64,000 bases of DNA from a virus (lineage: Duplodnaviria > Caudoviricetes), in the IMG/VR virus record IMGVR_UViG_3300028228_000176, positions 637-64,636 of that record; one strand, written 5' to 3'. This document shows positions 25,299-58,323 of the stretch, in pieces. The notes below the pieces were generated by a model. It worked only from the letters and a program-made list of their open reading frames with translations, made no database searches and was not told the DNA's origin. A program made the position numbers and the translations under genes. Within the stretch, counting starts at the first letter, position 1; each line of letters starts with the position of its first letter.

Positions 25299-25320
25299 AT
25301 TGTATCGGAAATCCATTACG

Positions 25321-25581: not shown

Positions 25582-25636
25582 TTTAATAATATTTTATCGT
25601 TATTAAATCTCACTAACCATATACTCAACGTTATGC
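25437..25636 (+). repeat. Long attC-like site (about 200 bp)
   Basis: GGCTAAC-atcg-GGTATAGTTA ... TAACCATATAC-tcaac-GTTATGC, the same architecture as the sites at 42-47 kb. Confidence 0.65.
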
Positions 25637-25862: not shown

Positions 25863-25906
25863 TTTCTATATATGTTTTTAAAACGTGTATACTTAATTCT
25901 TTATAT

Positions 25907-26019
25907 CTATACATAAGCAATAGGGCGGGCTGCAAATGAACTTGGATACCTCCCAAGAGCGATACTCGTTCGTCAACTTTCTCGGATTGCGTGTAACATT
26001 CCCTACCACTCGTGTATAG
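25907..26019 (+). repeat. Degenerate attC-like hairpin
   Basis: ctatacataagcaataggg / ccctaccactcgtgtatag imperfect inverted repeat; the core boxes are eroded. Confidence 0.5.
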
Positions 26020-26025
26020 CATAAC

Positions 26026-26962: not shown

Positions 26963-27025
26963 AATTATTATTTTTTATAAGCATCCAGCCTTATAAGTGT
27001 ACAATATAAGATTACTGCCTTATTA

Positions 27026-36374: not shown

Positions 36375-37106
36375 CTATAATGTACGGTTTATAAAAAATT
36401 GTTTAGAATTAAAACCTTCTGTCTTGTAAAACATATCGTATATCTCTGTTGCCTTCTTGACTTTATCTGCGCCTCTATCGTAGAACTCCTCTGAGCAGTC
36501 GAATAAGCCTATCTGCTGCGTTCCTTTATCTATAACTACGAATAGCATATCGTATCCAAACATCTTGCGGTATATGTAAGCTTGACTGTCGTAATTATAT
36601 TTCTTAGCAGAAAAGTTAAAACCGTTTATATCGGATGTTGTTTTCAAGTCAACTATAAGTTTCTTGTCGTGATTGATAATATCCGCTTTACCCTTCCACA
36701 TATTACCCTCAAGTCCAACTATATTTGGAACCTCGTATTCTACGTTACCTCCATTAATCAAGTCGCTGCAAGTGTCGTTTTCCAATAGAGTCTTTACGAG
36801 GTCATCAACTTTATCTGCTTCGTGTTTAAGCAAGCACATTTCTTCTCCCGACTCTTCTCGGTAAATTTTAGTGTTACGAGTTGAGGCATCCACCACCTTG
36901 AAGTTTTTTAACTTTTCTGGCTCCAGTATTGCTGTATGAAAGTAACCACCTACAATCATTGCTGAGGTTGGCTCTGTCTTTTCTTTTAGCATCAAAGGAT
37001 TGCTGAATAGCGTACCTATATTTGAATTGCTTAGGTATTGTTGACCAAACTCTCCATAGTAGTCTTCATCAATTTTTAATCTCTCTAGTATTTCTTTCTT
37101 GTCCAT
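36375..37106 (-). CDS. PD-(D/E)xK exonuclease (RecE/DUF3799-like)
   Basis: Motifs FHTAILEP, KGKAD, VDLKTT and YDSQAYIY. Confidence 0.8.
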   Translation of the reverse strand: MDKKEILERLKIDEDYYGEFGQQYLSNSNIGTLFSNPLMLKEKTEPTSAMIVGGYFHTAILEPEKLKNFKVVDASTRNTKIYREESGEEMCLLKHEADKVDDLVKTLLENDTCSDLINGGNVEYEVPNIVGLEGNMWKGKADIINHDKKLIVDLKTTSDINGFNFSAKKYNYDSQAYIYRKMFGYDMLFVVIDKGTQQIGLFDCSEEFYDRGADKVKKATEIYDMFYKTEGFNSKQFFINRTL

Positions 37107-37109
37107 ATC

Positions 37110-37649
37110 TTAAAGTGTTGTTAATTTAGTTTCTACGTCTTTCGTTAAGGTATACTTTCCTTTGATGTCATCAATACTACCACCTTTTTTAATATACTCT
37201 TTAGCTTTGTTGAAGCTATCGCTATCTGACACTAAGGCTTTCTTAGGGGTTGATTTGTCGTGGGTGTTACTTGCGTCGCTGTCTGCTGTGTCGTCTATTA
37301 AAAATAGATTCCCAAGAGCATACTTCTTACCGTAACTTGAAGAGGAACCAAACTTCTGTGGCATCTGCATACCCTTTTGCTCAAGGTCAACGCCAACTAT
37401 ACTATTTGCGTGTATAGCATTCTCTCCATCTGAGATAGTGGCAGTCATTTCCATAATAGGGAATGGCTCTGTACTTAATAGCTTCTCTTTCACTGTAACT
37501 GTTACTCCTAATTCAATGAGGAAAGGCTTGGTAGCTTCTAGGATATCTTCTGCACTACGGAAGTAGTACTTACCGAAGGCGTTGAACCTACTCTTTTTTG
37601 ATTTGAATTGTGTCTGGATTATTGCCAGCTTGTCGTTAATTGTTTTCAT
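37110..37649 (-). CDS. ERF-family single-strand annealing protein
   Basis: Motifs FGKYYFRSAEDIL and GSSSSYGKKYALGNLFLIDD. Confidence 0.85.
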   Translation of the reverse strand: MKTINDKLAIIQTQFKSKKSRFNAFGKYYFRSAEDILEATKPFLIELGVTVTVKEKLLSTEPFPIMEMTATISDGENAIHANSIVGVDLEQKGMQMPQKFGSSSSYGKKYALGNLFLIDDTADSDASNTHDKSTPKKALVSDSDSFNKAKEYIKKGGSIDDIKGKYTLTKDVETKLTTL

Positions 37650-37662
37650 AGTGTTTATTTAT

Positions 37663-37693
37663 TTGTCACAAATATAGGTTTAATTTGTGACAA
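37663..37693 (-). promoter_or_regulatory. Promoter -7 box (TATATTTG on the - strand) inside an 11-bp inverted repeat
   Basis: ttgtcacaaat-N9-atttgtgacaa; matches the Bacteroidota TAnnTTTG consensus upstream of erf. Confidence 0.5.
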
Positions 37694-37717
37694 TTGTTGT
37701 TTAAAATAATAAATTAA

Positions 37718-37775
37718 TGGTTCAATTTTTTGAATGTTTCTTATAACATTGTTAGGTTTAATATTTTAAAAAAGC
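37718..37775 (+). other. attI-like recombination site, copy 1 (apparently empty)
   Basis: TGGTTCAATTTTTTGAATGTTTCTTATAAC-att-GTTAGGT; the 30 bp are identical to 41983-42012. Confidence 0.65.
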
Positions 37776-37796
37776 CCACCACTGTTATGTGCTTAC

Positions 37797-38766
37797 TCAT
37801 TCTCCACAATCTGAAAAAACTTCACAACTCTCTGTTTCGTCAAAAAGAGATTCTTGAAAATTAGTATCAATACTATCGTCTTTAACTATTTTATCAAACC
37901 CTTTACTCATTTCAATCATTTCTTTTACACTTACAAAGTTCCTAAAAAACACATTTTTATATTCTTCTGTTGGTACTTTTTCCATTTCATATCCTGTAAT
38001 AGTTTCTCCAAATTCATCTTTATATTCGTAATAAACTTTTTCAGGAACTCTACCATTAGGATTTCCGTATTTATTTTCAAGGTAATCTAAAAATTCAAAA
38101 TAATTAATATCATCTTTTACCATTTGCATCAACTTATTGTTACTCTTCTTATAACAAGCACCACAATTACCCTGATACCCTTTTAAAATCAATCTAAATT
38201 TTTGTTGATCCCAACCTAAAAATTTATATGCTTTTTTTGTCATTGGTTGCATATTTTTTTGAATTAAAGGGTAAACTAATCTTAATTCGTCTTTTTTTAG
38301 CGTTCATCCTATCTATTTCGTCAATTCTAATACCTAATGCTAAATAATATTTTTCCTTACCCCAAATACTTTTTGCATAGTTTTTAATAGGATTCATTTT
38401 TAATTCCCTTGTACAATGTAAACGAGAATGATTTGGTATTCCATACTTCTTTACAACTTCTTCAAAAGGTGTATCTGTTGTATTTTTCCAATCTGTATTT
38501 CTTGTAGCAGAATTATAATCAACTATTTTAAAACCTGTACTTTTTCTTTGATTATGGTAAACTTTGGCTTCAATCCATTTAATGTCCAACCCAAATTCTT
38601 TTTCGCATTTATGTACAAACTCTAAAGTTTCGTTACTTTCAACACCTGTGTTAGCAAAAACAAAAAGCATCTCATATTCGTTTTGCATTTTTTTATTTAA
38701 CCAATTCCCCATAAAAGCAGAAGTTTCTCCTCCGCTAAATGTAACTAATAATTTTTTCTTACTCAT
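37797..38766 (-). CDS. PAPS-reductase-family (PP-loop) protein, frameshifted into two ORFs
   Basis: Motifs FSGGETS, FANTG, CTRELK, LGIRIDE and GNCGAC. Confidence 0.75.
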
Positions 38767-38780
38767 ATCTTATATCTTTG

Positions 38781-38820
38781 TTCGTGCCTCACAACGCTGT
38801 TTATAGCCAAACCATTAGCT
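38781..38820 (+). repeat. Right half of a decayed attC-like site
   Basis: ttcgtgcctca...atagccaaaccATTAG resembles 46899-46936 (ttcgttcctca...atagccaaaccGTTAG). Confidence 0.5.
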
Positions 38821-38846
38821 ACAATGGGGCGAACCCGCATTTTTAT

Positions 38847-39602
38847 TTACAAATAATCTAATACTTGGTTGCTGTCTACATTTTCTACTAATGTATCTAC
38901 TGCTTGTTTCTTCAACTCCGAAACTCTAACGTGCCTACTCACACCTTGTATATCCATTATATCGGCTATCTGCAAGGCTGAGTGTTTATCACAATCCAAT
39001 CCATAAGACAACCTCAAGACTTCATACTCTCTATTATCAAGGTGCTTACTCATTAACCCTTTTAAATAAGCGTTAAGGAAAGCTATGTTATAAGGCTCAG
39101 AGTTGTCAATAATCTGCTGATACATTGTTTCTCCATCTTCATCTTGAGCTACATTATCGAGAGACAAGAATATAGAATTAAAAAACAACTGCACCATTTT
39201 TTTGTCATCAGGATTCTTTCGCATCTTATTTCGTTTCTCTTCAGGTATTCTCATAGAGCCACTATTCATATCAATCCTTCGTCTAATAGCACCCTTGATT
39301 CTTTTACTAAGAAAAGATTTTAAAGTTTTGTCGATGTCTTCTGACTCATATAATCTAACAAAGTCTACTCTATCTACTGCTCTAACTAAAGCCTCAGCAC
39401 CTATCTGTATGAGGTCGTTGATTGTTAGTATCCCAATAGCTTGTTCTGAACTTGCAAACTTCCTGGATAAGTTCTCCACTAACGGGAGGAATCTAACTAT
39501 TAATTCATCCCTACTATATTCAGCGTATGGCTTATCTTCTGGCATAGATGATTTAACATCATTCTTATACCGAACGTAACTCTCTACATTATACTTTTTC
39601 AT
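38847..39602 (-). CDS. Sigma70-family RNA polymerase sigma factor
   Basis: Region 2 (DLIQIGAEALVRAVD, RIKGAI) and region 4 (LDNREYEVLRLSYGL..IAD..VSELK). Confidence 0.8.
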   Translation of the reverse strand: MKKYNVESYVRYKNDVKSSMPEDKPYAEYSRDELIVRFLPLVENLSRKFASSEQAIGILTINDLIQIGAEALVRAVDRVDFVRLYESEDIDKTLKSFLSKRIKGAIRRRIDMNSGSMRIPEEKRNKMRKNPDDKKMVQLFFNSIFLSLDNVAQDEDGETMYQQIIDNSEPYNIAFLNAYLKGLMSKHLDNREYEVLRLSYGLDCDKHSALQIADIMDIQGVSRHVRVSELKKQAVDTLVENVDSNQVLDYL

Positions 39603-39629
39603 ATTTCATTGGTTAAATTACCAATGTGT

Positions 39630-40250
39630 TCATATTACATCATTGAGAGTGTCAATCTCATTCTTCAATTCATCTCCGATATTCCTTGCAATAGTTTTTC
39701 TGTTGCAAGATAGCATCGTGGCTATTCTCGTAATCGTTATCTTTTCATTCCCTTCGTTAATAGACAACATACAATCGTATATGTTATCTTTTGTTACCAC
39801 TGTACTTCTACCTATCACCGAGCCAACTATCCTTAGTTTTTCTACTTTAGTAAGGCCACACATTGGCTTAAATATTACTTTCCTAGACTTGTTTGGCGGC
39901 TGAGTTGTCATCTCTCGGTTCCCGATGTCTTCAATTGTAAACTCTATTAACGAACTTCTTAGGGCAAAGGTAGTAAAACCATTTGACTTATTACAGATAA
40001 ACTTTGCAATTGTATCAAATTTTTCTTGACCCATATTTTTATTTAAGTATCTAAGGACAAACAAGTGCCATCTAAGAGACTTTAGTGTATTGATTTTATT
40101 AGGGGTTGCAAATAGCTGGAAGCATTGCATCGTACCATCTTTATAGTACCATCCCCATTCATAAGATTGTGTCGGCTCATCTGTTGTTGGCAAGCTCCTA
40201 TATATAACTTGCCTTTTGTGCAAGTATTCTATTTTTCTTTCGTGCGACAT
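39630..40250 (-). CDS. DNA-binding protein with a C-terminal HTH (possible replication initiator or regulator); probable start MSHERK
   Basis: ITITRIATMLSCNRKTIARN helix-turn-helix. Confidence 0.55.
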   Translation of the reverse strand: MSHERKIEYLHKRQVIYRSLPTTDEPTQSYEWGWYYKDGTMQCFQLFATPNKINTLKSLRWHLFVLRYLNKNMGQEKFDTIAKFICNKSNGFTTFALRSSLIEFTIEDIGNREMTTQPPNKSRKVIFKPMCGLTKVEKLRIVGSVIGRSTVVTKDNIYDCMLSINEGNEKITITRIATMLSCNRKTIARNIGDELKNEIDTLNDVI

Positions 40251-40289
40251 TAGCTTGTTAATTAATATACTTAATAGCCTAATGTCACA
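40242..40289. promoter_or_regulatory. Dyad element, copy 1 (GTGCGACATTAG-N25-CTAATGTCAC)
   Basis: Also found at 48723 (inverted) and at 52468. Confidence 0.65.
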
Positions 40290-40432
40290 TCCGCAACAAG
40301 TGAAGCCGTTTGCTATATTTTTTAAATAAAAAAATGTTTGTTTCATTTACATTTAAATCAAGGGCATCGTTAAGTATGTTGTACTTCAAAAAGTATATCA
40401 TACTAGCGGTGTACCTTATGTGCCTTATAACT

Positions 40433-41039
40433 CTAAAAGTCTTCATCTATTCTACGTTTTAGTTCTTCAATAGTTTTCTTTAATGTGTCAGCCACTTCGT
40501 AATGCTCCAAGTCTTCTTGATGAAACAATTCCTTTTGCAAGTCTTTTATTTTCTGCAAGTAAATCTCTTTTTGAGATGGCTTCTCTGTTTCTTCTATTTC
40601 TTCTGGATGGAATACCACTTGTATCATATCCTCTTTTTCATGCTCTGACATTTGCTTAATAAAGGCATCGTCAATTTCCTGCTGTCTAAATAATAGTCTT
40701 TCCACTATCGACTCTAATAGTCTTCCCGCTATCATCTCTGTTAGCACTTCCATTTCTTTTTTTGTCATAGTTTTATTTATTAAAATTAGCATCTATTATT
40801 CTATGCAACTTGCCCGTCAGCTCTCTACTTCTCCTTAATGTTGGGTGCTTTAACGGATACCCTTCTCTATCTAGCAACAGGTCGTGTAATGCTTCTATTG
40901 TGGCTATATCTGAATCCAATATTGTAATATCGTCCAACCTCTCCGTTAAGTTCCTTCTACGTTCTGCATCACTGTGGCTACATACTATCTTTTTAAACGT
41001 ATATCGGTCTATTCTTTGTATAAATTCCAGTGCTGTCAT
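40433..41039 (-). CDS. Two hypothetical proteins (40433 to about 40768, and 40773-41039)
   Basis: Tandem - ORFs. The first has a UvrB/C-like coiled motif (EHYEVADTLKK). Confidence 0.5.
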
Positions 41040-41076
41040 ATCTTTAGTGCTTTGTTATTATTTAATTGTAATCTTT

Positions 41077-41730
41077 TTATTTTCTTATTGATACATAAGC
41101 TGCATCTATTAAATTCATTAGTGAACTCTTAAAAGCTATTGACGAAGACTTACCTCCAATACTCCATACATTCAACTCGCTAATAGTATACTCCCTATCG
41201 TAAGTTTTCCAATCGTATATCGTGTAGTAATAATCCCCAAATCTTACAATCCATTCAACGCTACTCTTCTCTCCTTCCTCAAACGTCTGCGTGGGCTGTC
41301 CTAGCGCCTCTACTAACTCAAAATACTTAACACCTCTTAGTGTATCAACCTTGCTGCTACCCTTCCACATATCGCTTGTAATTTCGTCCTGTAATATAGT
41401 CTTTATATTGAAAATATAATTATTGATATTACATAGCTCAGGGTTCGTTTCTACAATGGTTTCAATATCGTGTCTCATCTCTCTATCTGTCTCACACAAG
41501 TCTTTCATTTTTGAAATGTTATTTATCACTGAAGAATGGTTCCTACTAAGGTAAACACCCATCATTTTTAATGTTGACCTTGTGTATGTTCTTGCTAAGG
41601 TACAAAACATTTGCCTGGCTGTAACTAATTCTCTACTTCTGTTTGGCGATAGTACTTCGTTTTTATTAAGACCGTAGTATTTACATACTATTGTCATTAT
41701 GCTGTCTAATGATTCTAATTCTCTACTCAT
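41077..41730 (-). CDS. Protein with a DnaA C-terminal HTH-like domain fused to an unknown domain
   Basis: SRELVTARQMFCTLAR...LSRNHSSVI resembles DnaA domain IV. Confidence 0.65.
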   Translation of the reverse strand: MSRELESLDSIMTIVCKYYGLNKNEVLSPNRSRELVTARQMFCTLARTYTRSTLKMMGVYLSRNHSSVINNISKMKDLCETDREMRHDIETIVETNPELCNINNYIFNIKTILQDEITSDMWKGSSKVDTLRGVKYFELVEALGQPTQTFEEGEKSSVEWIVRFGDYYYTIYDWKTYDREYTISELNVWSIGGKSSSIAFKSSLMNLIDAAYVSIRK

Positions 41731-41745
41731 AATTTTGTTTTTATT

Positions 41746-41982
41746 TTAAAAAGGTAATTTGTTTTTCGTGTATCCATCATAATGAATCTTTATCCCGCAG
41801 AATAGGAAGTGATGCCTATTGTTTTTAGCTCCATTGAAAGATATAGAATGATGCTTTGCATATTTAGATGTTGTTTTTAATTCTAATTCTTGTTCAATTA
41901 AATGAACTAAGTTTTCTAATTCTCTAGGTGTTGGTTTGTGGTTACAAATGTCTATAATCACCGCCTTTATTGATTCTGTCAT
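41746..41982 (-). CDS. Hypothetical protein
   Basis: 78 aa; its ATG abuts the attI-like site. Confidence 0.45.
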   Translation of the reverse strand: MTESIKAVIIDICNHKPTPRELENLVHLIEQELELKTTSKYAKHHSISFNGAKNNRHHFLFCGIKIHYDGYTKNKLPF

Positions 41983-42022
41983 TGGTTCAATTTTTTGAAT
42001 GTTTCTTATAACGTTGTTACAG
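41983..42022 (+). other. attI-like site, copy 2, heading the seven-cassette array
   Basis: 30-bp motif followed by gtt and the core GTTACAG (predicted crossover G^TT at 42016/42017). Confidence 0.7.
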
Positions 42023-42028
42023 GCAATA

Positions 42029-42931
42029 CTACATTAGTCCTCCGAAAATGTGAGCAATTACATTTACAGTCCATCCATTGCCGAGCATCTTATACCTATC
42101 TGTATTTGATACTCCTTCTGTATATTTATCAGGTACGGTTTGTAATCTCTCACATTCAACAACTGTAAGTCTATGTATATTTTCATCTCTGTCTTTTGTG
42201 AAAGTAGATTTTTGTCCTTTGTGCATATTTGAAGTTAAGCAACTTGCTTTTCCATCAGCATACCACAACTGTTCTAATCTTGTTTTATTTCCAAATTTAC
42301 CAAGCAACCAGTTTGGGTAATTATTATGAAACATAGGTGTTTGTAAAATATCATATACTACTGTTTTATTCTCTTTTGGTAATTCATTTAAAGGAATATT
42401 AGTCCAATAAATTCTCGGTCTGTTGTGTGCTGAAAATAGATTTGAGTTTATTCGTATTGGCTCAACTCCCAACGCTTCTGTAATAATATCTTCCCACTCT
42501 TTTTTCATTACTACATTTTCAAGTAAAAAGTATCTTGGTTTTACTTCATTCAGAACTCTTACAAATTCCCAAAACAAACCACTTTTACCATCAAATCCTT
42601 TCCCATTTCCAAAAGAACTAAAACTTTGGCAAGGACTACCACCGAAAAGCAAATCTATTTTTGGCAAATCACTACCTTTTAATTCCGTAACGTTTCCAAT
42701 TTGTTTTGTGTTTGGAAAGTTTTTTTGTGTTATAAAAATTGCTTTCTCATCAATCTCCGAAGCAAAGTAGTTATTCACCTTTAACCCTGCTTTCTGCAAA
42801 GCTAATTGTCCACAACTCATCCCATCAAAAAGGGATAGTGCGTTAATCCCGTACTGCCTGTAACACGTGCTATAATCAATAGCGGATTCTGTACTATCCG
42901 AAAGTTTCTGCTGTTTATTATCTTTTGTCAT
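42029..42931 (-). CDS. Cassette 1: C5-cytosine DNA methyltransferase (probable start MTKDNK, inside the attC)
   Basis: Motifs LSLFDGMSCG, GGSPCQ, ENV and YKMLGNGW. Confidence 0.85.
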   Translation of the reverse strand: MTKDNKQQKLSDSTESAIDYSTCYRQYGINALSLFDGMSCGQLALQKAGLKVNNYFASEIDEKAIFITQKNFPNTKQIGNVTELKGSDLPKIDLLFGGSPCQSFSSFGNGKGFDGKSGLFWEFVRVLNEVKPRYFLLENVVMKKEWEDIITEALGVEPIRINSNLFSAHNRPRIYWTNIPLNELPKENKTVVYDILQTPMFHNNYPNWLLGKFGNKTRLEQLWYADGKASCLTSNMHKGQKSTFTKDRDENIHRLTVVECERLQTVPDKYTEGVSNTDRYKMLGNGWTVNVIAHIFGGLM

Positions 42932-42986
42932 AAATTTAAAGTTTTGTGTTATTAATCCGCTACTACTCATAGCACCATCGTTAGCG
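42858..42986 (+). repeat. attC-like site 1
   Basis: CTGTAAC-ac-GTGCTAT..TAGCGGATT ... AATCCGCTA..ATAGCAC-catc-GTTAGCG. Confidence 0.8.
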
Positions 42987-43316
42987 GTTATTAAGGTAGT
43001 CCCATAATTTACCACTATCAGAAAAATCAATATTCTTTCCTTTATCTGTAATCATTCCATCTTTATATTTTACTCCAAAATCCAATTCAAAACAAAAATA
43101 TTCAATCCAACTTTGACCGTGTTCGCAAAGTTCTAAGTCATTATTCTCAACTTGTAAAACTTTCATCAAAGCGTTATTTATAAGATGATTTTCGGGTAAT
43201 AAATTTGCTTCAAAAGCATTTGTAAATACTTCCGATAATTTTTTAGCAAATTCATTATCATATTCATATTGTTTTCTTAATGCTTCAATGCTTTCAATAA
43301 ATAATTCTCGTGTCAT
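42981..43316 (-). CDS. Cassette 2: hypothetical protein
   Basis: 111 aa; the TAA stop lies within the core GTTA. Confidence 0.7.
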   Translation of the reverse strand: MTRELFIESIEALRKQYEYDNEFAKKLSEVFTNAFEANLLPENHLINNALMKVLQVENNDLELCEHGQSWIEYFCFELDFGVKYKDGMITDKGKNIDFSDSGKLWDYLNNR

Positions 43317-43334
43317 AATTTTTAATTAAACAAC

Positions 43335-43430
43335 CGCTAACACACGGTATAGTTAAAAAGCCTATTAAAATTTGTATTTGAATTGCAAGGTAGTGGTTAG
43401 GCTTTCAAACCATACCGCAATTCGTTAGGT
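43335..43430 (+). repeat. attC-like site 2
   Basis: CGCTAAC-aca-CGGTAT..AAAGCCTA ... TAGGCTTT..ATACCG-caattc-GTTAGGT. Confidence 0.8.
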
Positions 43431-43985
43431 GTAATATTCACTAAGGCAAATGCTATTATCAACCTCATTGCCAAAAACCGCCCAGCCTTTTCGATCACGT
43501 CTTGCAAACATTTCCAGTCGGGGTTCTTCGCTTACCGTTTCAATTAAGTCTTGGAAAAATTCAGGCTTTTTGCTATGTCGTTTTTGCCTTTTGTGTTCCC
43601 ACCAAGTACTATCTATCCTTTTTACTTTCGGCATCTTACCACGCCTTGCAAGTATCAAAAACTCGGTCGTAGGGCAGTAAACCCCTCCTTGCCCTGTACC
43701 CATAGGTTTTTTGCACCAAGTTAATGTTTGGCAATACTTCAACCCCCACGCACTTAATACGGCAAAAGCATCAGGTAAATATTTTTGAGTAGTCCATAAG
43801 TAAACCTCACAGTTACCATCACAAAGGCTTTTTACTGGTAGTGCCTTTATATCTTCTACCGTCATCCATTCGTAAGGTAGTGGTGCAGGTTTATTTGCTT
43901 CTCCTTGCACCAAAGCCTTTTTACTTCCGCTACCCCAAATGCCGTATTTCCAAGGCGGGTCTATTACTATCGTTTTATATTTCAT
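43425..43985 (-). CDS. Cassette 3: MT-A70-family adenine methyltransferase
   Basis: Motifs IDPPW, YLWTT, HSKKP and LEMFAR..GW..FGNE. Confidence 0.85.
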   Translation of the reverse strand: MKYKTIVIDPPWKYGIWGSGSKKALVQGEANKPAPLPYEWMTVEDIKALPVKSLCDGNCEVYLWTTQKYLPDAFAVLSAWGLKYCQTLTWCKKPMGTGQGGVYCPTTEFLILARRGKMPKVKRIDSTWWEHKRQKRHSKKPEFFQDLIETVSEEPRLEMFARRDRKGWAVFGNEVDNSICLSEYYT

Positions 43986-44014
43986 CTTTCGTTATTTTAA
44001 TCCGTTCATACTAC

Positions 44015-44069
44015 ACCTAACACTGTATAAAAGCCATAGAAAAAACGGCTCATATACTAAACGTTAGTA
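44015..44069 (+). repeat. attC-like site 3
   Basis: ACCTAAC-act-GTATAaaAGCC..GGCTcaTATAC-taaac-GTTAGTA. Confidence 0.8.
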
Positions 44070-44817
44070 ACAATTATTTTTTTGCCCCACTCTTGCGTGA
44101 CCAATCTCTACGGCTTTTTCTGATATGTCGCAACCTATAAAATTTCTATTTAAGTCTTTGCAAACTTCTGCCGTTGTAAAAGAGCCACCGTAAAAATCAG
44201 CTACTAAATCACCTTTATTACTACTTGCTTTTATTATTCGTTCAAGTAGTGTTTTTGGCTTTTGTGTTGCGTATCCTGTATAGTCTTTGTGTTGTGAACT
44301 TAACATAGGTTTTAAATCATCCCACCAATCAATAGGTAAAGATTTGTCGTAATTATAAGTAACTCCGTTTAATACTTTTTATAAGAACCTCCGTTTTTGT
44401 TATCAATATAAAGCTCATCTAAATTAAATTTATACTCTTTAGTTTTAGAGTACCAAAATATATTGTCGTGCTTATTGCTAATACTTTTTTGCTTTTACCT
44501 CCGCTTCTGTAACACCAAATTATTTCATTCAAAATCTATCATAACCAAATACATCATCCAAAATACACCTTACCCAGTGGCTTATCTTTGTGTCCATTTG
44601 TAAATATATACTTCCAGTATCTTTTAAAATACGGTGCATTTCTTTTATTCTTGGTATGTAGTGTTCTTCTATTATTTCTCGTTTAGGTTTTAAAATCTTG
44701 GTAGTCTTTGAATTTTCTACCTGTTCCATAAAGTATATCGCAGTAAATTAAATCTACTGTACTATCTTTTATTTCTGCCATTAACTCTAAATTATCACTT
44801 AATCTTATATCAATCAT
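44064..44817 (-). CDS. Cassette 4: beta-class N6A/N4C DNA methyltransferase (frameshifted)
   Basis: Motifs VDLIYCDILY, LKDTGSIY, YATQKP and VADFYGGSFTT; the stop lies in the core GTTA. Confidence 0.75.
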
Positions 44818-44876
44818 CTTTATAAATATTTTAATTCGTACCTCATTAATTTGCCAACGCTCTGAAAAATAACAGT

Positions 44877-44932
44877 AACTAACAATGTATAAAAGCCATA
44901 GAAAAAACGGCTCTTATACCCAACCGTTAGCC
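44877..44932 (+). repeat. attC-like site 4 (interior nearly identical to site 3)
   Basis: AACTAAC-aat-GTATAAAAGCCATAGAAAAAACGGCTCTTATAC-ccaacc-GTTAGCC. Confidence 0.8.
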
Positions 44933-45571
44933 ACAAGCTGCTACATTATCGCTTTTAATGAAGTTTCCCCATTGTTCAGCCATAGCTTTTGCAATTCCGC
45001 TAAAAGTTTTACTGCTTTCCTTTTGGCTTATGTTCTTAAATTGATATTTCTGCCCTCGTTTTTTGCCCCCTGTATTACTTGGTAAGTACGGCTTATATTC
45101 GCTTACTATTTTGGTTGGGCTTAATAGTGGTAAATTTTTAATCCACAGCAGAGTTCTTTTACTATAAGGGTGTCCGTATTCATAAGGTTGCACCGCTTGG
45201 CTTTGTTTAGGCAATCCAACTACTTTTAACGATGTTGGGTTCTCAACAGCAATATAAGGTATAGGAGCGTTCAATAATTTCATAAACAAATCCTTCGCTT
45301 CCATTGCTTTATTAAATCTTTCTTGGCTTAAATTTCCTGCTGTTGGGTACATCCATCTTGCACCAGCTCTACTAATATAAGTGCAAGGTGGGTGCGCTAT
45401 CATAAGGTCATATTTACCACTATACGCTTCTACAACTGCATCACCTACAATATGCCATTCAGGTTTACCACGACTACATTCTTGCATATCGCAACTATAA
45501 GCCTCAAATCCTATTTCTCGGAAAGCCTTACAAACTTCTTGGCTCTCCTCACAAGCTATTAATATTTTCAT
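44927..45571 (-). CDS. Cassette 5: short cytosine-methyltransferase-like protein
   Basis: Motifs ILIACEES, AHPPCT, VENP, KRTLLW and GIAKAMAEQW; the stop lies in the core GTTA. Confidence 0.7.
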   Translation of the reverse strand: MKILIACEESQEVCKAFREIGFEAYSCDMQECSRGKPEWHIVGDAVVEAYSGKYDLMIAHPPCTYISRAGARWMYPTAGNLSQERFNKAMEAKDLFMKLLNAPIPYIAVENPTSLKVVGLPKQSQAVQPYEYGHPYSKRTLLWIKNLPLLSPTKIVSEYKPYLPSNTGGKKRGQKYQFKNISQKESSKTFSGIAKAMAEQWGNFIKSDNVAACG

Positions 45572-45609
45572 TCTATTTAATTTTAGTTCTTAATTTACCA
45601 CAGCCAGAT

Positions 45610-45672
45610 GGCTAACACGGTATATAAAACAGCTTCCTATCGTCAGCCGATTTCATATACAAACCGTTAGGC
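45610..45672 (+). repeat. attC-like site 5
   Basis: GGCTAAC-acg-GTATATAAAA ... TTTCATATAC-aaacc-GTTAGGC. Confidence 0.8.
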
Positions 45673-45712
45673 ACAATATTTTATTAATTTTTGCCAACGC
45701 TCTTTTGGTTTT

Positions 45713-46513
45713 TCAAACCAATTGTGGTATTTGCTCTCGTAAGAATAAATAAACCTCTTCCTGTGTTATATAAGGTGTAGAAATCACATTGCTTCTATCC
45801 CCGTAATAATCTTCAAATTTATCATTGAATATTTGTTTTATTGTTGGGATTAAAGTTTTATCTTCAATTACTATCTTATAGTTTCTTAATGTTTGTTTTT
45901 CATTAAGCACCTTCCACACCTTGCTCCCCATCCTGCATATCCTAAAATCTTCTTGCAATGGTAAATATTTTTTACTCCTTTTATCATCCGCAACAACTAA
46001 AATGCTATTTAATTTAAACTGTTTTCTTTTATTTAGCTTGCCACTTACTGGTCTTTTGTAAATATTCAAACAGCATCGTAATTCCCTGTCAGTATATACT
46101 CTATTCCCCAAATCTTCACTATGTATTAAATCAAACTTAAATAAAGAGCGTGTTTTGTTTAGTAGTTTTATGCTCCCAATAAAAGCTATGTAATCTCCTT
46201 GCTCAACTGCTTTATTGTAAAAACTTCTGAATAAGTTGCCACTATCACCAAATGGGGGGTTTCCAATAACACACCTACCTTTAAAGTATGGCAAATCTAA
46301 TTCAAGGTAGTTCTTTTGTTCAATGTTTTCTGCTTCTGGTTCAATATCAAATGCAAGGTAGTTGTTATCTAAATATGGTAAAAACACTCCTGCTCCTGCA
46401 CTTGGTTCAAGCCATTCAGTTATGTTTTCAACTCCAATTACTTCTTTTGTTTTCTTTACACAATACTCTGCTAAATCAGAAGGTGTGTAGTATTTGTCTA
46501 AATTTATTTTCAT
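45713..46513 (-). CDS. Cassette 6: gamma-class N6-adenine DNA methyltransferase
   Basis: Motifs YYTP, LEPSAGAG and GNPPF. Confidence 0.8.
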   Translation of the reverse strand: MKINLDKYYTPSDLAEYCVKKTKEVIGVENITEWLEPSAGAGVFLPYLDNNYLAFDIEPEAENIEQKNYLELDLPYFKGRCVIGNPPFGDSGNLFRSFYNKAVEQGDYIAFIGSIKLLNKTRSLFKFDLIHSEDLGNRVYTDRELRCCLNIYKRPVSGKLNKRKQFKLNSILVVADDKRSKKYLPLQEDFRICRMGSKVWKVLNEKQTLRNYKIVIEDKTLIPTIKQIFNDKFEDYYGDRSNVISTPYITQEEVYLFLREQIPQLV

Positions 46514-46568
46514 ATTCTTATATTATTAAATTAAAAAAATCCCTCCCTAAAAATTAAAAAATACAGAT

Positions 46569-46632
46569 GCCTAACACTGTGTCATACGTAAGTTTGTGAA
46601 AAACAAACCAACGCATACACTTAACGTTATGC
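46569..46632 (+). repeat. attC-like site 6
   Basis: GCCTAAC-act-GTGT..CGT..GTTTG/CAAAC..ACG..ACAC-ttaac-GTTATGC. Confidence 0.75.
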
Positions 46633-46636
46633 ACCA

Positions 46637-46846
46637 TTAAAGTGCTTCGAACTCAATTTTGTGGTTAAATGAATCACCATTACCGCTTGCATGAATTGCC
46701 CATAAATTACCTTGTTTATCCATACCTTCGGCATAAGTTCCGTCAGTTAGTGTAATATCAAGTTCACAATATTCATGTAACCACTCTTGCATAGTCTGCT
46801 CATTATCGTTGTGAGCATATTCTGTATTCCAAATAAATGTTTCCAT
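46637..46846 (-). CDS. Cassette 7: hypothetical protein (probable start METFIW)
   Basis: Acidic 69-aa ORF between terminal inverted repeats that match at 14 of 15 bp. Confidence 0.65.
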   Translation of the reverse strand: METFIWNTEYAHNDNEQTMQEWLHEYCELDITLTDGTYAEGMDKQGNLWAIHASGNGDSFNHKIEFEAL

Positions 46847-46871
46847 AGTTAAATTAATTAAAATTAACGGT

Positions 46872-46938
46872 GCATAACAACACCTATAAATCATATTTTT
46901 CGTTCCTCAAAATCCGCTTCATAGCCAAACCGTTAGGT
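46872..46938 (+). repeat. attC-like site 7 (end of the array)
   Basis: GCATAAC-aacac-CTATAAA ... TTCATAG-ccaaacc-GTTAGGT. Confidence 0.7.
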
Positions 46939-46996
46939 GTAATATTAAAAAAGGCACTGTGCTGTGCCAAATAATACCTTGTTTTGTGTTTATTTA

Positions 46997-47308
46997 TTAA
47001 TATTTGTTTCCAAGTTGAACCATTGATTCATCCCTTCCATGTAAGCCCTTTCTTTTCTCTCCCGTATACATCAAGTCTCCATTGTGAACCAAGTTCGTTA
47101 AAGCTCTCCTAATGGATGTTATTGGTGTTTTTAGGAACGCATCAAGAGTTCCTAAGACAGACGCAGATGTAGTAAACATTTTCCCCTTTGTTGTTAAAGC
47201 CGATTGAGCGTAATTCATAGCTTCCATTATCACCTGCTTTTGAGTTAATGCTTTCTTTTTGTATTCCTTTAACTTTTCTCCGCTTTCGTTTGTTGTGTTA
47301 TAATACAT
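46997..47308 (-). CDS. Putative winged-helix DNA-binding protein
   Basis: PITSIRRALTNLV helix followed by a beta-wing. Confidence 0.5.
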   Translation of the reverse strand: MYYNTTNESGEKLKEYKKKALTQKQVIMEAMNYAQSALTTKGKMFTTSASVLGTLDAFLKTPITSIRRALTNLVHNGDLMYTGEKRKGLHGRDESMVQLGNKY

Positions 47309-47476
47309 AGTTATATATTTTTAATTTGTTTAATTGCTTCAGACCTTAATTCGTCTGCTGAAGTTTTACCGTTTAATTTTTCATAAGAGTGTATCCAATC
47401 CAGGACTTTAAAAACTTGGTCGTGACTTTCACAAATTCTTATCTTATTAACGATGTTGTTGTATTCTATTTGATTC

Positions 47477-47734
47477 CTACCTCTTCGCATTGTCTATGTT
47501 TTCGTTAATAACTTCCGTTAGTTCTTCGTAATTAACGCAAGACAAAAAAGACTTTGCGTACAATTCAACTAAATCAAAATCCTCAGTTTTGTTTTTAAAA
47601 AGAGATTCTCTAGTAATTTGCTGAATGTCGTTTGAATTTACTTTGTCTTTAAATTCTCGAAACCTTAGTATGTCAGTCCATACGCACCACGTTTCGTAAT
47701 TAAGGTGCTCGATGTTAGCTCTTACTTCTTCCAT
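47477..47734 (-). CDS. Hypothetical protein
   Basis: 85-aa ORF. Confidence 0.5.
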   Translation of the reverse strand: MEEVRANIEHLNYETWCVWTDILRFREFKDKVNSNDIQQITRESLFKNKTEDFDLVELYAKSFLSCVNYEELTEVINENIDNAKR

Positions 47735-47837
47735 AATGTTTATTTATTAGGTTTTAATGTGTTTATCTTTGGTAAATGTAAGCATTTTATATTAAATAAG
47801 ATGTATATATTTACATTAATGTGTTCATAGTGTTATT

Positions 47838-48056
47838 TTAAACTCGGCAGCCTTTATTGGTTGTCGGGTTTTTTTGTGGTTTAATTTTTTGAATGTTTCT
47901 TATAACATTGTTGTATTCCATAATAATTTTTTTCGCCTTCAACACGTGCTCACTTAATACGTCTTGTATGTAGTTTTTTAAGTCTTTATTTGCTTTAACC
48001 GCTAATATCTTTAACGGTTGCACATCTTCTATTTTTATATCTATAAGTTTTTTCAT
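47838..48056 (-). CDS. Small ribbon-helix-helix-like protein that reads through attI-like copy 3
   Basis: MKKLIDI strand followed by LKILAVK..LKNYIQDVL helices. Confidence 0.45.
   Translation of the reverse strand: MKKLIDIKIEDVQPLKILAVKANKDLKNYIQDVLSEHVLKAKKIIMEYNNVIRNIQKIKPQKNPTTNKGCRV
47841..47876 (+). terminator. + strand terminator-like hairpin directly before attI-like copy 3
   Basis: aactcggcagcc/ggttgtcgggtt (G-U pairs form on the + RNA) followed by a T-tract. Confidence 0.5.
47877..47916 (+). other. attI-like site, copy 3
   Basis: 29/30 identity to the motif, followed by att-GTTGTAT. Confidence 0.6.
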
Positions 48057-48307
48057 AATCTAAAGTTTAATCCTAATCTTAAATCTTCGTTTGCTTTTTT
48101 AATATCTTCTAATTGTGCTTTTTTTGTTTTGTAAACTTTTACTAATGCACCAAAAACTTTTACAACTTTATTTTTTAATAAGAACTTATTTTTTAATTCG
48201 TATGCTTCATCTTCGTTTTTAGTTACTAATAAAACTTTTTTATAAGTGTTGTTTACTACTATTGTAAAACCTTCTTTTCTTAAATCTTGTGCTTCTTGAA
48301 TTGTCAT
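48053..48307 (-). CDS. Hypothetical protein (probable start MTIQEA) with its own TATATTTG promoter box near 48340
   Basis: Overlaps the next gene; caaatata lies upstream on the + strand. Confidence 0.5.
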   Translation of the reverse strand: MTIQEAQDLRKEGFTIVVNNTYKKVLLVTKNEDEAYELKNKFLLKNKVVKVFGALVKVYKTKKAQLEDIKKANEDLRLGLNFRL

Positions 48308-48421
48308 AATTTCTAACGCTTTAATTATTATACTGCAAATATACATTGTATATATTATATACACAAGTATTATATAATAATAATTATAAATGTTTTGTTT
48401 TTATTTATACGTGTACAGCAT

Positions 48422-51400
48422 TCAGTTTAATACTTGTAAGTAAAGATACGACACTTTGTTAAACTCAGTGTTAAATACCCTAAAGTCCTTCATGCTTGCA
48501 ATAGCACTTGATACGCTATCAAATCCCAGGTCTTTAGCAAACCTTAGTTTTCTCATATAGTAGCTGAATGCTATAATATCTTTTAGTTGTTTAGACTTGT
48601 GGTCATAGTTGTCGATCCCTTCGTCTCTTTTGTTTGTCTTTTTCATAATAGTTTCTTATTTGGTAGCCTTGTGTTTCCTTTAGGGCTGTATTAATTTTTT
48701 ATAAAAAAATAAAGGTTTTCCAATAGTGGGACAATAGGGTATTAAGTTATATAATTAACAAGCTAATGTCGCACTATTTTTACAATGATATTAGCATCGT
48801 AAAAAGGAGGTATTTTATTTTTTAAGTTTAACGACAAAGGAATTAAACCCCCTTGCTATAAATGTTTCTTCTTCCATCGAAAGTAACTTAACTCTAAATA
48901 CTTCGTCATTTAGATAGCTTACTTCGTCAATTTTTGGGTATTTTTTCGTGGTATCCCATTCCGCACCTATTGGTATAGTTCCGCTTCCGTCTCTTTTTAT
49001 GAAACTTATAAAATCTAATTTTTTGCCTTTCTTTTTCATGTTATTTGTCAATTAATATAAAACCATACTTTTCTTTGTAATCATCCTGGTCATGCTCACC
49101 GTAAAATTCTTTAGTAACGCCACCAAAGGAAACGTCTGACGAGCTTTCGACTTCTATTGATAGTGTTCCCTCAAAGCAGCCTCTGTACTTCGTTAGATGA
49201 CACGTATCGACATTAATTATTTTATTGTGGTATAGTATTTCGTCGGTTATTTTTATATGTACCATAATTGTATTTGTTAAGTTTTTTTAATAAAGTTCAT
49301 CAATCATTTTTAAATACTTTTTCGGCAACTTGTCGTAAGATATAATTGACTGGGTGCTTCTCTGGCTGTTAATATAAACTTCTTTTATTACAAAGTTGTT
49401 TAAAGTATTGCTTGCATCGAATAAAATTAAATCGCCTAGAGTTAAAACGCCTTCCCTTAGCAAAAGAAACTCACCTCCTTTACTTATGTATCTTTGTATT
49501 AATTCGTCTAATTTTGAACAACTTATTGTTTTCATAATTTCTATTTTTTAAGTGTTAATAAGCTGAAAATTGATGCGTTTCAAAATGTAGGTCTTGATAT
49601 TTGTCTTTTAGTTCGTGGTATTCGTTTTCTATAAAATCCTCAAAATCGTGAAAATATTCGTTCCAGTCTAGACCGTTTCTTTTTTCCCATTCGTTAAACT
49701 CTTGTTTTTTAGCTTCAGAATTTACTACTGCTAACCAGTCTTTATGGATTGTCACTAATTTGTTAATTCCTTTAATTAAGCTATCTAAATTTTGATAGTT
49801 TACGGCATTTTTAACGCTTTCAATTTTCTTTTTGTATTCGCTTTGGATGTTTAAATTTTTCATTTTCTTAGTTTTTATTTTTGTGTTTTGTGTTTTAGTT
49901 TTTTCTGTCATGTTTAGCCTTTTTGACTATGTTATCAATATTGGCGTTAAAAACATCTTTTGCACTTTGGATTTTGCTGTTAAGAGACTCTTCAAATTGC
50001 TTTTTTATGCCTTCTTTTGTTAATTGGTAGTCCCTTAGATTGCAGCTAACTTCCAACAATAAGCAGTCAAAAGAATAGCTATCCAGTATAGCTTGTGAGG
50101 TTTCGTAATTACTATTTAAATTTACGTTTGAATAATCCATCTTTTTAGTTTTTAGTGTTTGTGTTTGTGTTTGTGTTTGTGTTTTTAAATTATGTTTATC
50201 GCTCCTGAATTATCGCTTTTAACTAAACCGTTTTCCTTCATACCTGCTTCGCTGCTTGCCGTCTTGAAAATTGCCGCTTTAAGCTCCTCATTTTCTTCTT
50301 TGCTTAGTTGTATTGTTACTAATTTATCAAAGCTCAGGTGCATGAAGTAAGAACCTCCTGGGCGACTTTTGCTCAATTCGATTAAACCGATTTCGGGGTT
50401 GAAAATTCCTATTCTTTTACTGCTTTGAATTTTTACGGTTTTGTCTTCTTTGCTTATTGGATAGCAGACAAAATTTTGCTCACCTCTATGTCCTTTCGCT
50501 TTTAAGTCAAATTGAATGGTTCCCATTATTGACTTTTTTATATTTGTAATTATTTCCATGTTTCTAGTTTTTAGTGTTACTTCTTTCGTACATTCCTATT
50601 CCTTTTATGGTCAAATCATCATCGTATAAATTTATCCAATGCCAGGCAACATTTACTGAATTAATACTTGCTTCCTTCCATTGTCCATTTTGGATTGTAA
50701 AGAATTTTTTATTTTAGTTTCTTTTTCATCTTTTTATTTTTATTGTTATCAATTGTAATCATTTTTTAAAAGTTTATTTAGTTTGTTTTCAAATGGTGTG
50801 AATGATTTTGATATATGTACAATTTCACCGTTCAGCCATATTTTAAAAGTTAGTAAGTATTCACCTGGATACCTGCCAAATTCGACTAATAAAATTCTGT
50901 TTTCGTTACTAAAGTCGATGTTTTCCCCTTTAATTAGTCTGTTTTTTAAATCTTTCATTTTGTTTAGTTTTTAAAAGTTTTGTTTTATGGATTCTTCAAA
51001 ATTGAAGTTGTATACTTCTTCTTCATTAGCTTCATTTTCTAGTTCTGTTAAGTCTGAATCATTCCAGTAGAAAACAGTAATACTATTAAAAAACTCAATA
51101 AAAGATTCTGTTTTTTCACCTTGAAATTCACTCATAATGCATTCTATTATATTTTCAAGTTCGTAAATTGTAGAAACCTCTAATGCGTGGCAATAGTTAC
51201 CGTTTCTGCTTTCTAATATTTTATTTAAAATTACGTTTTTCATCTTTTTAGTTTTTAAATTATGACTTTGTCAATATTATAGTTATTGTAATTATATCGA
51301 ATATAATTATTGATAAAAATAATGTTTTTAATATCTTAAATGTTAATTTTTTCATCTTTTCAACTTGTTATTGTTCCATTTACATTAATTGTCACGCTGA

Positions 51401-56784: not shown

Positions 56785-58323
56785 ATGTCTAACGGAATCG
56801 TTAAGAATCTAAACTTCGGAGACGAAGGTAAAAATAAAGTGTTTGAGGGTATCTCAAAGTTAACACAAGCCGTTAGTTCCACATTAGGAGCTAGCGGTAA
56901 GTGTGTAATGCTAGAGGACGGCTCAGGCAAACCATTAATTACAAAGGATGGTGTAACAGTGGCTAATGCAGTTATACTCTTAGACCCAGTAGAAAATATG
57001 GGTGCAACGCTGTTAAAAGAAGCGGCAAGGCAAACAGTTATTGAAGCAGGCGACGGAACAACAACAGCTACGGTATTAGCACACGCAATACTAGAAGAGG
57101 CTTTTAAAAACAAAAACTATAACTCAAGAGAGATTCGCAATGGTATAAATTCTGCCGTTGACAAAGTAGTTACATACTTAGAAAGTATCTCACATAGCGT
57201 CACTGGTTCTATGTTAACTGAAGTTGCTACAATATCATCTAACAATGACGTAGAGCTTGGAGCTTTAATTGCTAAGGCTTTTGAAGACGTTGGCGAGAAT
57301 GGTGTAGTTAGTATGGAAATATCTAACGACGAAGAAACATCAGTAGACATTGTAGATGGCGCTTCTATTGATAAGGGGTTAAAGAATGACCACTTTATTA
57401 ATAACAAAGAAAAAGGTACTTGCGAACTTAACAATCCACTTGTATTAATTGTAGAAAGCAAAATACCTAATGTAAGAAAAGTTCAAGGAATTTTAGAATA
57501 CGTTATTAAGAATAACAAAGAATTACTTATTATTGGAGAAGCAGATGAACAGTTAGTGACTGCTTTATCAATGAATGTAAATAAAGGTAACATCAAAGCC
57601 AATATTATTGATTCCCCAGACTTTGGAATTAATAGGAAAGAAACGCTTCAAGATTTTGCTGCCTTAACTGGCGCTACAGTGATTAACGAAGACTTGGGTG
57701 ACGATATAGACCTAATTGATGTTAGCCACTTAGGTACGTGCTTAAAAGCCGTTACAACAAGAGAAGATACTGTCATTCAAGTTGAAGGCACTAACGATGC
57801 TGTTGTTGGTTTAATTAAGCAAATAAAAAAGCAGATTAAAGAAACAAAGATTAACGGAAAGAAGCACCAATTAGAAAGAAGGCTATCAAGGCTTGCTGGA
57901 AAGGTTGGTGTAATAAAAGTTGGGGCTAATTCAGAGGTTGAACTCAAAGAAAAAAGCGATAGAGTTGAAGATGCAATATGTGCAACTAAAGCAGCTATAA
58001 AAGAAGGTATTGTTCCAGGAGGAGGAATTGCTTTACTCAACGCTAGTACGATTGTTTTAGGCTTAAATGCAGGTGAAGACATTTTGCTAAAAGCTATTCA
58101 GTCTCCATTCAATGTTATTATGAAAAATGCAGGGATGGAAGACTTTGAAAAACCAACCGAAGAAGGTGTAGGATATGATGTAGTAACAGGTAAAATGGTG
58201 GAGATGATTAAGTTTGGAATTATAGACCCACTACTCGTAACTAAAAGTGCTTTGAAGAATGCTGCATCTGTAGCCAATACTATTCTTGCAACTGATTGTG
58301 TAATTAATAATCTAAGAGCATGA
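56785..58323 (+). CDS. groEL: Chaperonin GroEL
   Basis: Motifs ITKDGVTVA, AGDGTTTATVLA, GIVPGGG and GIIDP. Confidence 0.95.
   Translation: MSNGIVKNLNFGDEGKNKVFEGISKLTQAVSSTLGASGKCVMLEDGSGKPLITKDGVTVANAVILLDPVENMGATLLKEAARQTVIEAGDGTTTATVLAHAILEEAFKNKNYNSREIRNGINSAVDKVVTYLESISHSVTGSMLTEVATISSNNDVELGALIAKAFEDVGENGVVSMEISNDEETSVDIVDGASIDKGLKNDHFINNKEKGTCELNNPLVLIVESKIPNVRKVQGILEYVIKNNKELLIIGEADEQLVTALSMNVNKGNIKANIIDSPDFGINRKETLQDFAALTGATVINEDLGDDIDLIDVSHLGTCLKAVTTREDTVIQVEGTNDAVVGLIKQIKKQIKETKINGKKHQLERRLSRLAGKVGVIKVGANSEVELKEKSDRVEDAICATKAAIKEGIVPGGGIALLNASTIVLGLNAGEDILLKAIQSPFNVIMKNAGMEDFEKPTEEGVGYDVVTGKMVEMIKFGIIDPLLVTKSALKNAASVANTILATDCVINNLRA

Follow-up and report, generated by a model that had tools for sequence, protein, structure and literature searches.

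A repeated 30-mer as a putative docking site for attC-bounded methyltransferase cassettes in an integrase-less phage

Integrase-less attC clusters with methyltransferase genes have already been published for phages: Qi et al. 2023 report 17 clusters of attC sites lacking an integron-integrase (CALINs) in phages, including one with two methyltransferases in the virulent Polaribacter phage P12002L, and recombination of phage attCs by IntI1 (PMC9892861). We analyzed a cluster of this kind in a Caudoviricetes genome, using a window of 64,000 nt that comprises bases 637-64636 of the 64,636-bp virus record IMGVR_UViG_3300028228_000176, a record with direct terminal repeats that is rated 100% complete. 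In the window the array of attC-bounded cassettes is headed by one of three copies of a 30-nt sequence (the 30-mer), and from sequence comparison we consider it probable that the 30-mer with its 3' core is a docking site for attC cassettes through integron-type site-specific recombination. Such a docking site in several copies, and the allelic series found at it, appear to be new; a full-text search of the literature from 2022 on for attI/attC methyltransferase cassettes in phages gave no paper beyond PMC9892861.

Like the P12002L-type CALINs of Flavobacteriia phages, as far as the relevant sections of that paper present them, the array consists of attC-bounded methyltransferase cassettes and lacks an integrase. 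A covariance model described below (R1) also finds attCs beside the methyltransferase genes of P12002S, the sister phage of P12002L, and of Cellulophaga phage phi12:1, where the sites and the genes are on opposite strands; the 30-mer is not at the head of the P12002S array. For CALINs of virulent phages, however, those sections of PMC9892861 describe neither a docking site nor an allelic series. They mention attI only for the CALIN of Shewanella prophage M16-3, which also has a complete integron with intI and the same attI; the present phage shares with it an attI-type site heading an integrase-less phage array, but has no intI-bearing integron.

Compared with the attI of integrons (e.g., attI1 of class 1), the putative docking site likewise heads an attC array, has a GTT R box and an inverted TTATAAC, and would recombine with attC so that the cassette's own attC ends up distal. 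It differs in that there is no intI anywhere in the genome, that there are three copies (four in a relative) over 10 kb, and that the cassette genes read towards the site rather than away from it; its likeness to Bacteroidota loci is a by-eye resemblance of TATA..AC-N-GTT alone. The junction rule for attI and attC, as given in section 3.4 of PMC9892861, is G/TTRRRY, the slash marking the crossover. Integrases can also use minimal GWT sites, termed attG, and in the parts of the source that define them (10.1101/2022.09.11.507474) these are, as the present site would be, double-stranded targets outside integrons that are cut once at GWT by an integrase acting in trans; attG sites are, however, scattered and consist of GWT with weak flanking motifs, whereas here one conserved 30-mer marks every site.

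The 30-mer and its settings

An initial annotation, made from the sequence alone, had listed three copies of the 30-mer, two identical and one matching at 29 of 30 positions, and searches of the window and of the full record agree with it. Copies without mismatch lie at 37718-37747 and 41983-42012, and one with a single mismatch (C to T at position 6) at 47877-47906. The whole 64,636-bp record holds just these three, all on the + strand; a control with the reversed pattern gave none, and no match to the 30-mer arose in any of 100 dinucleotide-preserving shuffles. The sites and the elements beside them are as follows.

37718..37757, + strand: docking site 1; 30-mer (37718-37747), spacer ATT, R-box-like GTTAGGT; unoccupied in this genome
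41983..42018, + strand: docking site 2; 30-mer, spacer GTT, GTT at the crossover; heads the cassette array
47877..47912, + strand: docking site 3; 30-mer with one change (TGGTTT), spacer ATT, GTT; non-attC insert behind
47913..48423, - strand: variable insert behind site 3; 72-aa open reading frame (ORF) 47838..48056 and 97-aa ORF 48053..48346; no family match
41746..41982, - strand: 78-aa ORF beside site 2; phrog_18952; an Atlas look-up gives viral hypothetical proteins only

After each copy come (A/G)TT and then GTT, beyond which the three sequences diverge; identity thus ends at AAC-NTT-GTT, right after GTT at all three copies, as the annotation had noted. The attI-like geometry that it had pointed out is present as well: an imperfect inverted (L-box-like) copy, TTATAAC, a 3-nt spacer, and an R box beginning G/TT. 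The left part of the 30-mer holds a palindrome, TTCAA-N4-TTGAA. No attC was found at the far end of the site-3 insert (47913..48423).

The three copies differ in setting. Copy 1, with a separate operator-like palindrome after it, stands in front of an ERF gene in an intergenic gap of 147 nt; copy 2 stands in a 46-nt gap, where the 30-mer touches the ATG (41982) of the - strand 78-aa ORF; copy 3 overlaps the final codons of the 72-aa ORF and is followed by a hairpin. One could envision from these positions that the 30-mer is a promoter or operator, recognized by a phage sigma factor or by a regulator at TTCAA-N4-TTGAA, and that cassettes land only incidentally on the adjacent GTTAGG, which would then be the remains of an R box, or an attG-like site between genes where an insertion does no harm. 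Each of the three copies lies between genes or at the end of one, and all have the same orientation, standing upstream of genes on the - strand and behind terminator-like hairpins; the phage has a gene for a sigma-factor-like protein (phrog_351), the palindrome after copy 1 could be an operator, and minimal GWT sites are usable by integrases. We nevertheless regard this explanation as unlikely, because conservation stops exactly at the crossover in 16 of 16 instances of the motif, because the 30-mer of copy 2 abuts the ATG and leaves no space for an untranslated leader, and because three to four separate loci have been reused with many cassettes, which would be surprising if the common sequence had no role. 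In addition, no sigma-70-type match is common to the three copies, such matches are not enriched in the region (42 found versus 50.1 expected), and the strand lacks the -33/-7 consensus of Bacteroidota. Among the runs listed as containing the stretch there was no RNA run.

The cassette array and its attC hairpins

Between 42017 and 46932 behind site 2 lie six units, each composed of one or more genes on the - strand and an imperfect palindrome at the high-coordinate end (...TAAC to GTTAG...). Five of the array genes are DNA methyltransferases of different families, one of them broken.

42017..43424, - strand: unit 1; C5 DNA methyltransferase (42029..43030) and 111-aa ORF (42981..43316); PF00145 E=1.7e-44, phrog_28377; closed by a long attC-like hairpin (43335-43430, fold -29 kcal/mol, no match with R1)
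43425..44063, - strand: unit 2; MT-A70 methyltransferase (43425..43985), PF05063 E=4.5e-22; attC 44015-44069, top strand +, R1 56.3 bits, a site that is part of the R1 training set
44064..44926, - strand: unit 3; N6/N4 methyltransferase in two pieces (44064..44306, 44529..44729), PF01555 on both; attC 44877-44932, R1 47.3 bits
44927..45666, - strand: unit 4; 214-aa methyltransferase, phrog_757; attC 45610-45672, R1 51.5 bits
45667..46626, - strand: unit 5; 266-aa methyltransferase-like gene (45713..46513), phrog_5172 and phrog_799; attC 46569-46632, R1 32.1 bits
46627..46938, - strand: unit 6; 85-aa ORF (46637..46894); short, eroded attC-like site 46875-46938, R1 24.7 bits, E=0.0039, outside the training set

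In unit 3 the two ORF pieces of the methyltransferase (44064-44729) are separated by a non-coding gap; homologues of the unit, with 74-85% DNA identity, occur in the related contigs L020, L021 and L024. The annotation had proposed that deleting seven cassettes, by joining 42016 to 46933, restores a site resembling the sequence after copy 1. The resemblance stands: the joined 30 nt after GTT align to copy 1 with a score of 9, compared with a mean of -7.4 for 2000 random 30-mers taken from 26-52 kb of the window, six of which reach 9. The number of cassettes does not, since six attC-bounded units were counted, the first holding two ORFs. GTTAGGT at 46932-46938 of unit 6 is the right half of the original site 2, and the arrays of the window, of G002/L023 and of L025 share the same end, GTTAGGTGTAAT.

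When folded on the - strand, the palindromes (7 sites) have a short R stem, an asymmetric unpaired spacer, a bulged L stem and a variable loop, and they show the hallmarks of attC: an inverse core ending in AAC, a core starting with GTT, an unpaired central spacer and an extra-helical base in the L stem. R1 was built from an alignment of 6 phage and 45 bacterial attC sites, in whose consensus hairpin one column is bulged and 5 of 12 pairs show compensatory changes; its invariant columns were partly imposed by the degenerate search pattern, drawn from four phage attCs, that gathered the sites. On the attCs of the window R1 gives 25-56 bits on the + strand versus at most 12 bits on the - strand, and it reports five same-strand sites within 44015-46938, the long site at 43335-43430 being recognized by its fold. 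With at least two attC sites in the array and no integrase in the genome, the locus is a CALIN. Because the attC bottom strand is the - strand of the window, the 30-mer stands where attI stands, at the head of the array. All the phage cassette genes, in the array as in the phage loci L015 and L016, oppose the attC top strand, and those of the array read towards the 30-mer and on into the backbone genes; the attC thus lies on the 5' side of each cassette gene, and phage transcripts would carry bottom-strand sequence.

Elsewhere in the window, R1 gave no site within 24000-27000. A long imperfect hairpin at 25071-25217, ending ...CTTATACAATT-GTTATG, is attC-like by eye without an R1 match; phage G001, otherwise dissimilar, has a stretch that matches it at 95% identity, and 1 of 200 shuffles folded better (z = -2.4).

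Alleles in related phages and within single runs

The exact 30-mer was found in two further IMG/VR contigs and in nine metagenome contigs. Alleles were compared in the window and the nine metagenome contigs, one of which was taken as the same contig as G002, a relative that is 96-99.8% identical to the window where aligned. All 16 instances of the motif are followed by NTT-GTT, and 12 different continuations lie beyond GTT, the total being 12 because one of them occurs at both site 2 and site 3.

Site 1: 4 contigs, 3 continuations after GTT
Site 2: 8 contigs, 7 continuations after GTT
Site 3: 3 contigs, 2 continuations after GTT
Site 4 (G002 only): 1 contig, 1 continuation after GTT

The relatives' alleles at copies 1-3 thus bear out the annotated picture of several platforms, one filled, one empty and one with another insert, and cassettes vary after GTT in relatives as that picture would have it. 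Filled and empty alleles, which the annotation had suggested comparing, are both seen at site 1. This site is unoccupied in the window and in L026, and holds two different attC-ended cassettes in other contigs, a 740-bp insert with a methyltransferase in G002/L019 and a 583-bp insert in L018. Since both inserts start with TTAG..., carry a - strand gene, end in an attC-like hairpin and rejoin at GTTAGGTTTAAT, the crossover lies inside the shared GTTAGG, a position which fits the 30-mer being the attI part and the + strand being the attC top strand. Crossover at G/TT of the R box with an inverted L box close by, as in attI, is seen both in these site-1 alleles and in joints at 42015/42016.

Recombination with attC is indicated by comparison, through the two attC-ended inserts at site 1 and four cassettes found in two contexts. 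Unit 4, which is behind an attC in the window, stands directly behind the site-2 30-mer in L018 (100% over 107 nt), and the first 122 nt of unit 5 stand directly behind the site-2 30-mer in G002 and L023 (99.2%). The cassette at site 4 of G002 stands behind an attC in L020, and the first site-2 cassette of L021 is found at site 3 in L024, where a methyltransferase gene replaces 47913-48423. These junctions are precise, recur with many cassettes and agree with the attC x attC junctions at other places in these arrays. No empty site-2 allele was seen among the compared contigs.

Variation is also present within single metagenome runs. The 20 listed runs (19 studies) that hold at least half of the sampled words of the stretch are mostly labelled salt lake metagenomes, and the contigs of four runs were compared over 36900-48700. 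In single runs (X2 and X12) several site-2 alleles occur side by side, with joints from 42015 to 44926 in X12, and from 42015 to 45666 and from 44061 to 46931 in both; the joints at 42015/42016 share four letters (GTTA). Depth in X2 and X12 is 64-120 in backbone bins and 5-16 over units 1-2. A joint from 47878 to 48402 occurs in X1, X2 and X12, and in X12 a joint from 37699 to 38840, on a contig of depth 126.8, skips the block behind site 1 along with its 30-mer. The joint from 42020 to 46931 in X12 was considered as an empty site 2 and rejected; it is classed 'between: not known' and fits an L025-type array.

One could also suppose that the array is a fossil, left by one pick-up from a bacterial integron and no longer recombining, and that the repeats of the 30-mer are unrelated duplications. 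The lack of an integrase, the broken methyltransferase cassette and the eroded attC-like sites at ~38781-38820 and 46875-46938 would agree with such a history, but four sites show 12 continuations among phages whose identity elsewhere is 96-99.8%, single runs contain several alleles, and the cassette ORFs are reversed as compared to bacterial arrays, all of which makes it very improbable.

The platform also occurs outside this group of close relatives. Phage G001 shares with the window 134 bp around site 2 at 91% identity, with the 30-mer matching at 30 of 30 positions; besides three short stretches, this is the only DNA common to the two. The first 60 nt of the 78-aa ORF accompany the 30-mer into G001, where the frame stops after 20 codons, which argues that the platform moved as DNA, and an attC-like array follows the 30-mer there as well.

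A proposed recombinase in trans and other routes of exchange

It is the genetics of the junctions, rather than enzymology, that supports reading the 30-mer as an attI-like docking site in several copies. Under this reading the docking site would be double-stranded, made up of the 30-mer with its 3' core TTATAAC, a 3-nt spacer and G/TTAGG, and circular cassettes with an attC hairpin would be inserted and removed by crossover in the GTT beside the 30-mer, with the left part of the 30-mer (TTCAA-N4-TTGAA) presumably helping recognition. The recombinase would act in trans, and the likeliest candidate is an IntI-like tyrosine recombinase supplied by the Bacteroidota host, whose chromosomal arrays would use the same attC type; replicating phage DNA, rich in single strands, could offer it a substrate. 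The benefit would be fast turnover of anti-restriction methyltransferases.

An attI adjoins an integron-integrase gene, whereas the neighbor of site 2 is the 78-aa ORF and the genome has no integrase; searches of the 64,636-bp phage genome for tyrosine recombinases (PF00589), integron integrases (TIGR02249), serine recombinases of the resolvase type (PF00239) and Y1 transposases (PF01797) gave no match at E up to 10. Bacterial attCs were sought with the degenerate pattern drawn from the four phage sites. At least 120 bacterial stretches match the pattern, and among the matches listed ~77 of 80 are Bacteroidota by name; 20 of the 64 bacterial loci searched hold at least two same-strand attCs. 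In 4 of 5 bacterial genomes checked, a co-oriented IntI-like gene has attCs on its own strand at 2-15 kb downstream, while the upstream side of such genes had attCs in 1 of 6 stretches, and a whole-genome search with the model likewise put the arrays downstream. The IntI-like genes are ORFs of 380-390 aa whose top NCBIfam matches are NF040815 and TIGR02249; one of three proteins passes NF040815, 'site-specific tyrosine recombinase/integron integrase' (244 versus 220 bits). After the stop of these genes there usually follow a palindrome, a few bases, GTT and a cassette-like start, and at 7 of 11 loci we see by eye TATA..AC, 2-4 nt and GTT, which resembles TTATAAC-NTT-GTT of the 30-mer. A survey with IntegronFinder 2.0, in its part on this phylum, gives a complete integron in one Bacteroidetes genome, complete integrons being rare finds there (PMC9024848). 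Our findings suggest a Bacteroidota integron type that standard thresholds may under-call.

A fuller proposal can be made only tentatively, and we hold it somewhat short of even chances: that an integrase-less phage platform borrows an IntI-like recombinase from its Bacteroidota host, trades reversed cassettes, and itself moves between unrelated phages. That the cassettes are mainly anti-restriction methyltransferases from a pool common to co-circulating phages belongs to the same proposal and is, to a like degree, possible rather than probable.

Several observations weigh against the docking-site reading or the host's part in it. No recombinase is linked to the docking sites. TIGR02249 matches occur in 25 of 25 bacterial genomes, none above the cut-off, and also in 14 of 14 controls, and the bacterial IntI-like proteins score 177-221 bits against a cut-off of 265. 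The annotation had suggested a search for the motif in phage and Bacteroidota genomes; a 27-nt core with up to three mismatches is in 0 of 401 genomes of Flavobacteriaceae, the family searched, which leaves mimicry of a host attI unsupported. In bacteria, 85 of 97 upstream and 76 of 97 downstream ORFs have the direction of the attC top strand, and the phage ORFs have the opposite one (4 of 4), so the cassettes are not simply borrowed from host cassettes; tblastn of 11 phage proteins against the bacterial loci gave four weak C5-methyltransferase matches and no sign of shared cassettes. R1 reports neither the L018 attC nor the unit-1 attC, both of which were judged by eye and fold. The run data are contigs in which most joints are 'between: not known', and they show existing forms, not frequencies. 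Because integrases can use any GWT site, the 30-mer might have no part of its own in the exchange, and the sites could be reused because selection favors insertion between genes where it does no harm.

The remaining points concern exchanges of another kind. In L024, site 3 has changed its spacer from ATT to GTT, as at site 2, while keeping the site-3 variant of the 30-mer and having no attC at the far end; this combination suggests a crossover inside the 30-mer. L025 and runs X1, X2 and X12 lack the site-3 30-mer plus 523 nt (47879-48401), with three filler letters in their place, and the fourth copy of the 30-mer in G002 heads a 1887-bp indel flanked by a 13-nt direct repeat. As far as their sequences go, these cases point to homologous or illegitimate events that would move the 30-mer together with its cargo. 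The 30-mer copies are shown to act also as portable homology, with whole blocks of 30-mer and cargo exchanged or lost by other routes. Relative to G002, indels at 49525-49561 (~490 bp) and 41069-41082 (1887 bp) have flanking direct repeats of gene-start sequence; through such direct-repeat indels the region gains and loses genes by a second route that does not involve attC.

It could then be argued that the 30-mer is nothing but a homology linker, with the phage ERF protein and exonuclease, or host RecA, recombining its 30-36-bp copies and the similar attC hairpins, which would need no site-specific enzyme. The ERF and PD-(D/E)XK exonuclease genes beside site 1, the apparent crossover inside the 30-mer of L024, the presence or absence of 30-mer and cargo as units in G002, L025, X1, X2 and X12, and the ~90% likeness of the attCs at 44015-44069 and 44877-44932, with a joint from 44040 to 44902 in X12, would all agree with it. 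The junctions between the 30-mer and the cassettes, however, share just GTT(A), 3-7 nt, with the source attC and yet are exact for at least five cassettes, and homology cannot account for a circular unit ending precisely in attC at the empty site 1, so we judge a linker without site-specific recombination to be quite unlikely. In T4-type phages, repeated early-promoter stem-loops are thought to shuffle genes. Those linkers and the 30-mer are both short, conserved intergenic repeats that bound variable accessory genes in the early region of a phage, and some exchanges here also use the repeat as homology; unlike at the T4-type linkers, attC hairpins take part here and most of the junctions fall at exactly one nucleotide. 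Integron-type recombination at the 30-mer remains the explanation we prefer.

The genes around the sites include candidates for the homology-driven exchanges anchored on the 30-mer, namely the first two below.

37110..37649, - strand: ERF single-strand annealing protein, PF04404 E=2.8e-27; adjoins site 1
36375..37106, - strand: PD-(D/E)XK exonuclease-like gene, PF12684 E=3.2e-23
37751..38840, - strand: block behind site 1; 151-aa ORF, PAPS-reductase-like ORF (PF01507) and an eroded attC-like half site at ~38781-38820
38847..39602, - strand: phage sigma-factor-like gene, phrog_351 E=1.5e-18; weak Sigma70_r2 match

Over ~26-52 kb of the window every gene is on the - strand, and a tRNA scan and Rfam gave no match in the window. 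In a near-identity search of a phage database the sole match was a 380-nt methyltransferase piece common to phages of Cellulophaga, Flavobacterium and Polaribacter. In each of the four compared runs, contigs lack one base relative to the window at 38214, 38217, 38232 and 38292, which falls where ORFs 37797..38252 and 38224..38766 overlap; either there are frameshifts in the window, or other phages may have the PAPS-reductase-like gene as a single, longer one. The window also holds a 922-aa ribonucleotide reductase-like ORF (27375-30143, - strand) in which an intein splicing domain and an HNH endonuclease are matched, a Cpn60/GroEL-type chaperonin (56785-58323, + strand; PF00118 E=7e-53), and a 48-nt inverted repeat pair (40242-40289 and 48727-48774), 85% complementary and 8.4 kb apart, an element that is also present in relatives.

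Earlier phage attC clusters have been reported as static oddities, whereas here near-identical phages from many samples present an allelic series at defined nucleotides, which opens to direct test how, if at all, a phage that lacks a recombinase exploits integron chemistry for rapid anti-restriction change. A large attC family with co-oriented IntI-like genes is also indicated in Bacteroidota. Should a host enzyme operate the docking site in trans, the site would be a landing pad both compact and portable, and would represent a new route of gene flow among phages and between phages and bacteria.

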